The notes under the pieces were generated by a model. It did not search any database, was not told the DNA's origin, and worked only from the letters and a program-made list of their open reading frames with translations. From assembly GCF_050920415.1 (NCBI RefSeq), contig NZ_CP169309.1: a DNA stretch of 64,000 nt. One strand, 5' to 3'. This document shows, piece by piece, positions 21,746-55,397 of the stretch. The position numbers were made by a program, and so were the translations under genes. Positions within the stretch are counted from its first letter, which is position 1. The number at the start of each line of letters is the position of its first letter. Origin of the DNA: Escherichia coli. Its GTDB lineage: Bacteria > Pseudomonadota > Gammaproteobacteria > Enterobacterales > Enterobacteriaceae.

Positions 21746-22516
21746 TTAAATGACTTTGCGAAGATTTTCAGCAAATGCGGCGATCTGTTCTTCGCCGTCG
21801 CCTTCAATCACAATGCGCTGACGCTCGCGCTGTTTCGGTGCGGCAACCTGTTGTTCAGACCAGGCTTCCACGGCGTTAAAGCCAATGTCCGCCGCCGACC
21901 ATACCTGGACTGGCTTTTTCGCCGCGCCGAGAATGGCTTTCATTGAAGGAATTTGTGGGGAGTTGATATCAGTGGAAACAGCAACAACCGCAGGCAGCGG
22001 AATGCTTAACGTTTCTGTTTCATCTTCCAGTTCGCGTTCAACGGTGAGGGTATCTGCCGTCAGGGAAATAATTTTGCTGACACCGTTAACGACTGGAATA
22101 TCGAGGATTTCGCCCACCAGCAAACCAACCTGTTGGGCATAAAGGTCGGAAGAACCATCGCCGCAGAGGATCAGATCAAACCCTGCTTTCTGGGCGGCTG
22201 CAGCCAGTGCTGTCGCCGTTTGTTGCGGCAGTGCCTGCTCGAACTGGTCATCAATTACCACAATCAGTTCATCCGGACCGCGCGATAGCACATCTTTACG
22301 CCCTTTGGCATTGGTCAGGGCTTTACCGCCCACACTTAAGGCCGTCACCTGCGCTTCTGCCGCCTGCTGTTTTAACTGACAAGCCGCTTCAATAGCGTTG
22401 AGATCGTATTGGCTTATTTTGGCATCGGCTTTACTGAAGTCTAACGAACCATCAGCATTATTGACCGCAATATCCTGTTCATCAGGCACGCACTTATAGC
22501 AAGTAATAATCTTCAT
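21746..22516 (-). CDS. fixA: Electron transfer flavoprotein beta-subunit homologue FixA
   Basis: ORF track 21746..22579; start trimmed to [15 protein letters not shown] (256 aa). Confidence 0.92.
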
Positions 22517-22599
22517 TGCATCTCCAGAAATCATGAAGGAAACGTCGTTCATATCGGTGGTGTTAATTACAGATATCACGCCCTTTAATTTGGAAATAA

Positions 22600-22745
22600 A
22601 ACTTTAATCACCAATATTGAAAATGTCACACGCAGATAAATCCAACTTTCAATATTGTTAAGTTCCTCACCAATATTGAAAACACGGCGTAGCAAAAAGA
22701 AATTTTCAATATTGTTTTATGGATCACCAATATTGAAAGTCAGAT
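22600..22745. promoter_or_regulatory. Divergent caiT/fixA control region with five copies of the palindromic core CAATATTG (CaiF/CRP-regulated)
   Basis: Seen in sequence: TCACCAATATTGAAAA (22608), TTTCAATATTGTT (22647), CTCACCAATATTGAAAA (22666), TTTTCAATATTGTT (22703), ATCACCAATATTGAAAG (22723). Established knowledge: CaiF binds inverted-repeat half-sites in the cai-fix intergenic region. Confidence 0.7.
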
Positions 22746-22985
22746 GCTATTTTTTTACTCATATCAGAACATAACACACTGATTAATAATCAAAATTAAC
22801 ACAAAAATGCCCTCTATTCACCCGAAACAAAAATGTGATAACAATCACAGAATGCAGCTTGTTGAATACCCATTATGAGTTAGCCATTAACGCGTCCACG
22901 AGGTTAATGATAATTATATTAAATGTTAACAAAAATAAAACAAACGGGAACGCAAAATAAATATTCGTTTTCACAGTGGAATTAA

Positions 22986-24503
<1,518 letters not shown>

Positions 24504-29547: not shown

Positions 29548-30137
29548 GTGAGTTATTACGCCTTTGAGGGGTTAATTCCAGTGGTTCACCCGACGGCGTT
29601 TGTCCATCCCAGTGCGGTCTTGATTGGCGATGTGATTGTGGGAGCCGGTGTCTACATCGGCCCACTCGCCTCACTGCGTGGTGACTACGGGCGGTTGACG
29701 TGCAAGCGGGAGCCAATATTCAGGATGGTTGCATTATGCATGGCTACTGCGACACTGACACCATCGTTGGGGAAAACGGCCATATCGGGCACGGAGCAAT
29801 CCTGCATGGTTGTGTGATTGGTCGCGATGCATTGGTCGGGATGAACAGCGTGATTATGGATGGCGCGGTCATTGGCGAAGAGAGCATTGTTGCCGCCATG
29901 AGCTTTGTCAAAGCAGGCTTTAGCGGCGAGAAACGTCAGTTGTTGATGGGTACGCCTGCCCGCGCTGTACGCAGTGTTAGTGACGACGAGTTACACTGGA
30001 AGCAGTTGAATACCAAAGAGTATCAGGATCTTGTCGGCCGCTGCCATGTAGCGTTACATGAAACGCAGCCGTTGAGACAAATGGAGGAAAATCGCCCCCG
30101 TTTGCAGGGGACGACGGATGTGACGCCGAAACGGTGA
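29548..30137 (+). pseudogene. caiE: caiE split by an apparent 1-bp deletion (frameshift near 29698)
   Basis: Two ORFs in different frames (29527..29817 and 29700..30137) together cover CaiE; the first diverges after GDYGRL and the second resumes at (V)QAGANIQDG. Span is 590 nt, one short of the 591 expected for 196 aa plus stop. Confidence 0.7.
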
Positions 30138-30253: not shown

Positions 30254-30649
30254 TTAACGACGCATACTCTTCGACAACATCATTTGCCACTTCTGCTCGC
30301 GGTTAAGTTCCGTGAGTGGAACGGCAGGAATACGCGGTGTCTTTCTTACGCCGACTAATTTTTCCCGACTGTTATTGCGCAGGCGCGCGTAAATTTGCTC
30401 ATCGATATCGACCACTTTAACCAGTCGCTGACACTGGCATCCCCGCCCTTCCAGCTTATTAGGGATCATCTTAACTTCGCAGCTTATTTCTGTGACTTCC
30501 GACAGAATATAAGTGAGGGTATTAACCGCCTTGCTGTGTTCAATATCGAAATGAATAGAGATCTCTCTTGCTATCACCCACCGATTTTCAGCCATCATCC
30601 ATTCGGCGATTAACAAGTAGAGTGGTTTTTCAACATATCCTTCACACAT
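30254..30649 (-). CDS. caiF: Transcriptional activator CaiF of the cai/fix operons
   Basis: ORF track 30254..30754; start trimmed to MCEGYVEKPLYLLIAEWMMAENRW (131 aa). Confidence 0.9.
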   Translation of the reverse strand: MCEGYVEKPLYLLIAEWMMAENRWVIAREISIHFDIEHSKAVNTLTYILSEVTEISCEVKMIPNKLEGRGCQCQRLVKVVDIDEQIYARLRNNSREKLVGVRKTPRIPAVPLTELNREQKWQMMLSKSMRR

Positions 30650-53903: not shown

Positions 53904-55397
53904 TTAGCCCCAGGTCACTGCTTCTGGTTTATCACCTCTGGCTTTCATTAGAGAATCATTATCAATATCACTTTTATATTTTAAAAACTTACCATACATC
54001 TGTTTTTCAATATCTGGTTTTTTACCGATCAGATTAAGTGTTTCAAAACGATCAGATTTAAGATTATAGAGATATTTCGGTTTATTATTGCGATCGATAA
54101 TCATCTTCCAGTCACCATCACAGATCGCCCATTCATCGGTTGGATCATCCTGGAATGGCATATCAATCCCGAAAATTAATGGCTTTTCGCGTTTCAATGC
54201 TTTTTGCTCAAGAACAGGAACCAACGATTCGCCATCAAAAGTGCGGTCCGTCGGTAATTTGAAGTTCATCATTTTCGCCAGCGTAGGCATCCAGTCCAGA
54301 CCATAAACGGGAGTATCTGAAACCATTCCCTTTGGAAGATGCTTTCCGTATTTAATAATCGCCGGAACACGGATGCCGCCTTCCCAAAGATTATCCTTGC
54401 GACCACGTAATCCATCAGTTTCCCCTGCCAAATTCAGTTCATAAACTTTACGTGCTTCACGGGTTACTGGGCCGTTATCACTGGTAAAAATAACGATGGT
54501 GTTATCTTCTTCACCCATCGCTTTGATTTTATCCAGTACTTTTCCAACCTGAGCATCCAGATAACTGATGTTGGCATAATATTCCCCCACACCACGCCAG
54601 GGTTTATCCGCCCAGTCGCCATAAAATAAATCAGGATGCTGCTTCTGATACGCGCTCATATATTGTGAGTACATGTCGAGGTATTTTTTGGGCGAAGCCA
54701 GGGGGCTATGCACTTCGGTAAAAGCGACATAAAGGAAGAAAGGCTTACTATCCTTTTTGTTATCCAACCAGTTAACGACTTCCGAACTGACATACTCACC
54801 ACTCATTTTATCGGCACGAGGTGTGGGTTGCCCGTTACGCAACCAACCCGTCGGATACACCATGCCAAAACGGGGACGCTCCTTCGCATTATCCAGAGTA
54901 GCGTCGGTAACAAAACCCGCCGTATTAACCAGTGAGTAATCAAAGCCCATATCTTTTGCCTGAGGCTGATCGGTACGATCGCCGCCTGCATTCAGATGCA
55001 GCTTACCCATCATTGCCGTGTCGTACCCTTGCGCTTTGAGTAGATTAGCAATCGTGAGTTCATTACGCCCTAATGCCACATCTTTTCCCGTTGGTATCCA
55101 TGAACGTATGCCGGTACGAAATGGCATCCGCCCCGTTAATAACCCCGCTCGCGAAGGAGAACTTAAGGGAGCTGGGGCATAGTAGTCAGTAAATTTGACG
55201 CCCTCCTGGGCAAGCCTGTCAATATTGGGGGTTTTAACGATCTGATGACCATATGTTGCTAAATCGCCATAACCTAAATCATCCGCCATAATAATGACTA
55301 AATTAGGTTGTTTAACCTCTGCGGCTAAGGCAGGACTAAAAGCATTCCCTGTGCAAACTGCAAGGCCGATCAAACTGGCCATTAACGTTTTCTGCAT
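53904..55397 (-). CDS. Secreted Ser-type sulfatase (arylsulfatase family)
   Basis: 497-aa ORF with signal peptide (MQKTLMASLIGLAVCTGNAFSPALA); sulfatase signature APAPLSSPSRAGLLTGR with Ser at the formylglycine position; N-terminal metal-binding region (IMADDLGYGDL). Confidence 0.85.
   Translation of the reverse strand: MQKTLMASLIGLAVCTGNAFSPALAAEVKQPNLVIIMADDLGYGDLATYGHQIVKTPNIDRLAQEGVKFTDYYAPAPLSSPSRAGLLTGRMPFRTGIRSWIPTGKDVALGRNELTIANLLKAQGYDTAMMGKLHLNAGGDRTDQPQAKDMGFDYSLVNTAGFVTDATLDNAKERPRFGMVYPTGWLRNGQPTPRADKMSGEYVSSEVVNWLDNKKDSKPFFLYVAFTEVHSPLASPKKYLDMYSQYMSAYQKQHPDLFYGDWADKPWRGVGEYYANISYLDAQVGKVLDKIKAMGEEDNTIVIFTSDNGPVTREARKVYELNLAGETDGLRGRKDNLWEGGIRVPAIIKYGKHLPKGMVSDTPVYGLDWMPTLAKMMNFKLPTDRTFDGESLVPVLEQKALKREKPLIFGIDMPFQDDPTDEWAICDGDWKMIIDRNNKPKYLYNLKSDRFETLNLIGKKPDIEKQMYGKFLKYKSDIDNDSLMKARGDKPEAVTWG

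Follow-up and report, generated by a model that had tools for sequence, protein, structure and literature searches.

Five CaiF-box motifs between fixA and caiT of Escherichia coli: two dyads matching the published CaiF sites and a conserved, unpaired candidate box in the fixA core promoter

The control region shared by the divergent fixABCX and caiTABCDE operons of Escherichia coli contains five copies of a short palindromic motif, while the accessible literature describes two CaiF sites, F1 and F2, with CaiF binding reported for both (PMC12083890). The locus raises the question of how five copies relate to two sites, and what a copy that belongs to neither site could be doing. We analyzed a window of 64,000 nucleotides (the whole stretch of DNA under study, to which all coordinates refer unless stated otherwise), in which the region of interest is:

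22517-22988: fixA-caiT intergenic region of E. coli, with the fixA ATG at 22516 (minus strand) and the caiT ATG at 22989 (plus strand)

This region is matched in 5394 of 5426 complete E. coli genomes and is 100% identical to that of strain MFDS1022581. The annotation of the best match places fixABCX on one side and caiTABCDE together with caiF on the other, which, with the ATG positions, agrees with the caiT-fixA divergent promoter named as the location of the motifs in the initial annotation. Two further observations were made in passing. The caiE gene (29548-30137, plus strand) is frameshifted after approximately codon 56, where the N-terminal frame ends in ...GDYGRL and then stops, the rest being found in the open reading frame 29700-30137; it is a frameshifted pseudogene also in the RefSeq annotation of the identical strain MFDS1022581. 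Between apaH and folA of the best-match genome (L082, 1-549) a chromosomal ccdA antitoxin gene adjoins a ccdB pseudogene with an internal stop.

The motif array and the two published CaiF sites

An exact search finds the core CAATATTG at 22612, 22650, 22671, 22707 and 22728, i.e. five times within 124 bp; the count of five agrees with the initial annotation. The full 64-kb window holds 8 cores compared to 1.7 expected from shuffles, and a count of 8 was reached by none of the shuffles. All five boxes contain the exact 11-mer TTTCAATATTG, on alternating strands, and the 64-kb window has no further exact copy of it. The R-type boxes, (A/C)TCACCAATATTGAAA, are found at 22607, 22666 and 22723 with intervals of 59 and 57 bp, and the L-type boxes, TTTCAATATTGTT, at 22647 and 22704, giving the layout R-(L-R)n. 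The alternation of two flank types had thus been read correctly from the sequence, but the even phasing at about 40-60 bp had not: neighboring boxes follow each other at 38, 21, 36 and 21 bp in a two-beat rhythm, and even spacing holds only between boxes of the same type. A 16-mer is common to boxes 1, 3 and 5 (direct-repeat family D2; 100%, 94% and 100%) and the repeat units are approximately 75% alike outside the boxes (direct-repeat family D1). Tandem Repeats Finder reported no array in the region because the units are too divergent outside the boxes.

The three isolated cores in the window (12690, 37266 and 55220) were considered as CaiF boxes and rejected, as none of them is part of an exact 11-mer and their occurrence is consistent with chance; the core at 55220 belongs to a match with one mismatch starting at 55217, and those at 12690 and 37266 carry at least two mismatches. 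Searching for CaiF boxes at the caiF promoter and elsewhere in the 64-kb window gave only intragenic matches with one mismatch (30541, 49745 and 55217).

Each of the sites F1 and F2 is described as a dyad of two 11-bp half-sites, 5'-TTTCAATATTG-N13-CAATATTGAAA-3' (PMC12083890 and PMC3680233, citing Buchet et al. 1999). This pattern occurs exactly twice in the region, and the regulator gene is located further along the window:

22647-22681: CaiF dyad formed by box 2 (TTTCAATATTG, 22647-22657) and box 3 (CAATATTGAAA, 22671-22681), with a gap of 13 bp
22704-22738: CaiF dyad formed by box 4 (22704-22714) and box 5 (22728-22738), with a gap of 13 bp
30254-30649, minus strand: caiF, encoding a protein of 131 amino acids that matches Pfam PF07180 (CaiF_GrlA) with 28.5 bits against a cut-off of 25

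Both dyads show the published half-site, its inverted pairing at 13 bp and a position in the cai-fix region of a genome that carries caiF. We take the dyad 22647-22681 to be F1 or F2, under either label, and likewise its partner 22704-22738. Judged by this sequence match, four of the five motifs are half-sites of the two known CaiF sites and are not extra, since the published site is itself a dyad and half-sites had been counted as sites. The initial annotation was accordingly right in assigning the motifs to CaiF and CRP control of the divergent cai and fix operons, but miscounted in holding that five copies exceed the two described sites, boxes 2+3 and 4+5 being those two. Its suggestion that the extra copies are additional or cooperative sites falls for boxes 2 to 5, and is supported for box 1 by the strong conservation across species described below. 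In RegulonDB and EcoCyc the CaiF sites were re-curated around shorter motifs in 2010, and the fifth box may already be recorded there.

Box 1 in the fixA core promoter

The remaining copy, box 1, has to be seen in relation to the promoters and the CRP sites of the region:

22607-22622, minus strand: box 1, candidate unpaired R-type CaiF box, ATCACCAATATTGAAA, reading TTTCAATATTGGTGAT on the fixA-sense strand, with the core at 22612-22619
22629..22601, minus strand: fixA core promoter, with -35 hexamer GTGACA (22629..22624), 17-bp spacer and -10 hexamer TAAAGT (22606..22601), scoring 9/12 in the promoter scan
22871-22876, plus strand: cai -10 hexamer, CATTAT, with the cai start near 22883
22834-22849, centre 22841.5: CRP site 1, TGTGATAACAATCACA, a perfect match (10/10) to TGTGA-N6-TCACA
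22656-22671, centre 22663.5: CRP-like site in the dyad 22647-22681, TGTTA-N6-TCACC, 8/10
22713-22728, centre 22720.5: CRP-like site in the dyad 22704-22738, TGTTT-N6-TCACC, 7/10

In work from 1998, CRP site 1 was reportedly placed at -41.5 of cai, CRP site 2 at -69.5 of fix and CRP site 3 at -126.5 of fix, with the cai and fix starts reportedly 289 bp apart. We take the centres at 22841.5, 22663.5 and 22720.5 to be these sites 1, 2 and 3, respectively. With a cai start at 22883 and a fix start at 22594 the centres derived from the sequence reproduce all of the reported distances, and since this geometry and the reported distances agree we place the fix start near 22594; both starts are thus estimates from reported numbers and sequence geometry, which we regard as reliable. 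The GTGACA-17-TAAAGT promoter, found by an independent promoter scan, is correctly positioned for a fix start at 22594. The dyad 22647-22681 is then centred at approximately -70 of the fix start and -219 of the cai start, and the dyad 22704-22738 at approximately -127 and -162, respectively.

CRP sites 2 and 3 share their centres with the CaiF dyads, and each CRP-like site overlaps the box cores by 1-2 bp. Among 69 dyads from other species, TG (positions 1-2), TCA (positions 12-14) and C (position 16) of the CRP 16-mer are invariant, TG and C being part of the fixed box cores. Each CaiF dyad would in this way wrap a weak CRP site, with its two cores 21 bp apart, i.e. two helical turns, and on the same face of the DNA. 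Because the cores stand two turns apart and flank the CRP centre, the geometry suggests that CaiF and CRP occupy the dyads together. The two proteins reportedly co-activate. One more CRP-like 16-mer, TATTGAAAATGTCACA at 22615-22630, matches 7/10 of the CRP core with its centre at -28.5 of fix and overlaps both box 1 and the fixA -35 hexamer; this match is probably due to chance.

Box 1 itself sits in the spacer between the fixA -35 and -10 hexamers, at approximately -13 to -28. It carries the published 11-mer as a lone half-site, so that the inverted pair of the F-type dyad is absent: the position expected for a partner at 13-bp spacing (22588-22598) matches the half-site in only 4 of 11 bases, and a position weight matrix built from 212 boxes detected no partner of box 1 in E. 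coli or in species with a single box. We also considered the invariant GGTGA beside box 1 as a CRP half-site and rejected it, as the other half matches in only 2 of 5 bases. The TGA following the core is invariant in 134 R-type boxes, box 1 included. In the dyads this TGA doubles as a CRP half-site, but box 1 has it without a CRP partner half-site, and TGA is therefore probably part of the CaiF recognition sequence, which would then probably be an asymmetric 14-15-mer rather than an 11-mer.

With slightly better than even confidence we favor a composite reading in which all five motifs are CaiF boxes serving the shared control region of the fixABCX and caiTABCDE operons, box 1 being a predicted promoter-proximal activating box. 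A CaiF subunit on box 1 (TTCAATATTGGTGA) would adjoin RNA polymerase at PfixA and make an activating contact close to the promoter, and the upstream CaiF/CRP dyads would be add-on modules that provide cAMP dependence and serve the distant cai promoter. Several points speak against this reading. Only two CaiF sites are described in the accessible literature, and if the footprinting probes of 1999 covered box 1, CaiF alone did not protect it in vitro; furthermore, factors binding between -35 and -10 more often than not act as repressors, and the spacer of 17 bp is already optimal, whereas MerR- or GrlA-type activation typically works on spacers of 18-19 bp.

The position of box 1 has to be weighed as that of a negative operator as well, where CaiF, perhaps without its effector or at high concentration, would block RNA polymerase at PfixA and set a ceiling or a switch on fix. 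A box inside the core promoter is in the classical place for a repressor, and the promoter is reportedly silent when uninduced in spite of its good hexamers and 17-bp spacer. We nevertheless consider a negative operator unlikely in view of the other genera described below. Box 1 is the sole CaiF box in Edwardsiella, Hafnia and Serratia, where activation, if CaiF activates there as in E. coli, must come from box 1, and most genera lack a -35 hexamer beside the box, which fits an activator-dependent promoter.

Conservation of box 1 across enteric bacteria

A comparison of motif number and spacing across enteric bacteria, as proposed in the initial annotation, was based on one genome per species with CaiT, i.e. 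80 caiT loci from other species, approximately 55 of which have a divergent fixA-caiT pair with an intergenic region below 900 bp. Box 1 is conserved in this sample, and the number of dyads varies from 0 to 3. Among the 80 loci box 1 is the most conserved and most widespread box, being found in all but one of the approximately 55 divergent pairs, and it probably is a functional CaiF box, as no other box is equally conserved across enteric bacteria. Its form across genera is atcacCAATATTGaa, located 93-99 nt from the fixA ATG in most of them (Escherichia, Citrobacter, Salmonella, Phytobacter, Pseudocitrobacter, Yokenella, Atlantibacter, Trabulsiella, Pluralibacter, Proteus and Providencia), with distances of 82 and 129 nt in two species. 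No other exact box occurs in Edwardsiella, Hafnia and Serratia sp. H1w, where box 1 reaches a matrix score of 25-28 and the runner-up stays below 4.

In 25 close species the conservation of the box 1 16-mer is 0.99; the intergenic region as a whole reaches 0.75 and the linkers lie at 0.50-0.77, and among the boxes conservation is lowest in box 2. When 19 genus-level representatives are aligned on the box, TTCAATATTGGTGA is kept in at least 80% of them and the flanks diverge; a conserved block AgGTtTTATTTt follows, and approximately 12 nt further on a second one with the consensus c.TG.TA..T.Tatt. Conservation in the Escherichia/Citrobacter/Salmonella clade extends over everything between the fixA ATG and approximately 22632, and in that close clade it is therefore not specific to box 1. 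The -35 hexamer GTGACA is confined to the Escherichia/Citrobacter/Salmonella/Phytobacter clade. Genera outside of it have a conserved TAtTTt block at a distance of 17 bp from the TTCAAT of box 1 (22593-22604 and 22616-22621, minus strand). This suggests an alternative or ancestral promoter there, with TAtTTt as a -10-like element and the box in the place of the -35.

The second block conserved across families corresponds to GTGATATCTGTAATT at 22565-22579 on the minus strand, which would be approximately +16 to +30 in the fixA transcript. Its sequence is TACTCAT or TACTTAT in some genera and there resembles a NarL heptamer, which would fit the reported repression by nitrate. A search of 22400-23100 against Rfam gave no matches, and the conserved fixA leader is thus not a known RNA family. 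Entomohabitans teleogrylli (L036, intergenic 195-229) is the only species with a dyad but without box 1, and the sequence next to its fixA shows no relation to the leader that the other species have conserved.

The presence of the boxes was also compared with that of their presumed regulator. The caiF gene is present in every Enterobacterales locus that extends far enough, and in the single-box species it is located beyond the fix operon; it was not found at the caiT loci of Shewanella, Ferrimonas, Campylobacter and others. The 13-mer CACCAATATTGAA occurs within 1 kb upstream of caiT in 50 out of 50 caiF-positive loci and in none of the 22 caiF-negative ones.

These results bear on the alternative that box 1 is conserved as promoter DNA, i.e. 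as a spacer or -35 surrogate or as part of the leader, free of CaiF and resembling a box because it arose by duplication. TTCAAT could indeed be a -35 hexamer at its distance of 17 bp from the conserved TAtTTt, and the conservation of the entire promoter-leader segment in close species is what such a role would leave behind; this conservation, like the lack of box 1 beside the dyad of Entomohabitans, also counts against an activating box. We still find conservation as promoter DNA quite unlikely. All 14 positions, including those that define the R-type, are kept across families while the adjacent promoter-like hexamers change, and the presence of the box follows caiF strictly. Box 1 matches the other boxes in sequence, is more conserved than its flanks, is strictly associated with caiF and occurs as the sole box in several genera; together with the precedent of GrlA (see below), this instead argues for a bona fide CaiF box.

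Unit number and the proposed role of box 1 in relation to known systems

The dyads found in addition to box 1 number 0, 1, 2 or 3 depending on the genus, which gives 1, 3, 5 or 7 boxes:

No dyad: Edwardsiella, Hafnia and Serratia; Leminorella and Limnobaculum, with stray single boxes elsewhere
No dyad, Budvicia aquatica (L047): two direct R-type boxes at intergenic positions 302 and 329, 27 bp apart, with TTTCAATATTGGTGATnnAGGTATT duplicated
One dyad: Yokenella, Atlantibacter, Pluralibacter, Trabulsiella and two further Enterobacteriaceae
Two dyads: Escherichia, Citrobacter, Salmonella and relatives; Providencia, with a decayed first left half
Three dyads: Proteus, in a strict 38/21/38/21/38/21 pattern

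The doubling in Budvicia aquatica is, from its sequence, of another mode than the multiplication of a 59-bp unit. In each of the 5388 E. coli genomes carrying the 150-bp array its identity is 95% or more, and a K-12 J53 derivative has the identical sequence. A unit-specific 49-mer was found in 5369 genomes compared to 5388 with the flanks, leaving approximately 19 E. coli genomes without the 59-bp unit, and none of the E. coli genomes carried the 49-mer twice. The endpoints were inspected in one of the approximately 19 genomes, derived from EPEC E2348/69 (L081, NZ_LT903847, 2410-2822), which has a precise 59-bp deletion corresponding to 22607-22666 of the window. It joins the TCACCAATATTGAAA copies at boxes 1 and 3, leaving box 1 and one dyad, and GTGACA is gone. 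This precise deletion within E. coli gives the differences in unit number between genera a visible mechanism, namely recombination between R-type boxes, and units of 57-59 bp would have been gained, and would be lost, as direct R-type copies recombine.

A history of this kind could leave box 1 as a neutral remnant, a truncated end unit of a tandem duplication. The form R-(L-R)n is what unit duplication is expected to produce, and loss of a unit is seen within E. coli; a neutral element should, on the other hand, not be the most conserved box, stand alone in several families and keep a nearly fixed distance from fixA, and we regard this explanation as extremely improbable.

The spacing within the array raises another alternative. 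Boxes 1 and 2 are separated by a nearly fixed 38 bp across genera and boxes 3 and 4 by 34-38 bp, and boxes 1 and 2 could form an alternative dyad (CAATATTGAAA-N24-TTTCAATATTG), used in either register or bridged in a filament or loop. The corresponding inverted repeat (I6) has no mismatch over 11 nt. With 38 bp, or 3.6 helical turns, between their cores, however, the two boxes would be on roughly opposite faces of the DNA; holding the dyad and its CRP site at -70 also explains the fixed spacing, and species with box 1 only have no such partner. An alternative dyad is in our opinion very unlikely.

Returning to box 1 as a promoter-proximal activating box, we infer the occupancy by CaiF, the sign of the effect and the contact with the polymerase from the observed sequence, geometry, conservation, co-occurrence with caiF and variation in unit number. 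A more far-reaching version of this reading is that a single asymmetric box of the box 1 type (TTCAATATTGGTGA) is the ancestral and sufficient CaiF operator, activating from within the promoter in a GrlA-like manner, and that the F1/F2 dyads with their nested CRP sites are lineage-specific amplifications (0-3 units of 57-59 bp) which tune the cAMP dependence and the reach to cai. We offer this version tentatively, as a possibility worth considering that falls short of being probable. A 50-bp region overlapping the fix start is reportedly essential for cai transcription, and an ancestral operator in box 1, if true, could also explain this need.

The established regulation of cai and fix is refined by these results and not altered; with four of the boxes already known the addition is modest, and box 1 is best filed as one additional, differently organised predicted CaiF box in a known system. 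A telling change in box 1 would be that of the core from CAATATTG to CAGTACTG with GTGACA and TAAAGT kept. The series of 1, 3, 5 and 7 boxes is a natural series for the effect of activator/CRP modules on promoter logic. Carnitine biosensors with a fix promoter use CaiF as their sensor, and models of how it binds DNA still start from the F1/F2 dyad only (PMC12083890). Should the box embedded in the promoter be the primary contact, box 1 would have to be included in minimal sensor promoters and in models of CaiF-DNA binding.

Compared with the CaiF sites F1 and F2 (Buchet, Nasser, Eichler and Mandrand-Berthelot 1999, Mol Microbiol 34:562, as given in PMC12083890 and PMC3680233), boxes 2+3 and 4+5 are identical, and box 1 has the same 11-mer. 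It differs in having no partner, in lying inside the fixA core promoter and in not being among the two sites described in the accessible literature. MelR and CRP at melAB, and CytR and CRP at deoP2, bind interleaved sites of one upstream region where both regulators are needed; the interleaving is alike here, with the difference that a CRP-like site lies inside the 13-bp gap of a CaiF dyad. Boxes of the PhoB/OmpR type take the place of the -35 element, and a response-regulator dimer binds them as tandem direct repeats. Box 1 of most genera likewise ends approximately 10-13 bp upstream of a -10-like block without a -35 hexamer, but is single. Spacer-binding activators of the MerR family also have their target between -35 and -10, as box 1 does; their promoters have 19-bp spacers, with a dyad bound by a dimer, and CaiF is not a MerR protein.

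The closest likeness within the family is that to GrlA, for which activation of the LEE1 P1 promoter of EHEC through the -35/-10 spacer has been proposed (Islam et al. 2011, Mol Microbiol 79:468, as cited in PMC4730234; see PMC3130263). The spacer of LEE1 P1 is 18 bp long and without dyad symmetry, while the fixA spacer is 17 bp and the core in it, that of the predicted site box 1, is an 8-bp palindrome. Of the features that GrlA- and MerR-like promoters would share, the over-long spacer of 18-19 bp is thus absent at fixA, and the site between the hexamers and a regulator of the CaiF_GrlA family are both found. GrlA and its paralogue CaiF belong to the same family, PF07180, and in both cases the target would lie between the promoter hexamers as a single site and not as a dyad. 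If true, box 1 would be a second example of activation from inside the core promoter for the small CaiF/GrlA family.
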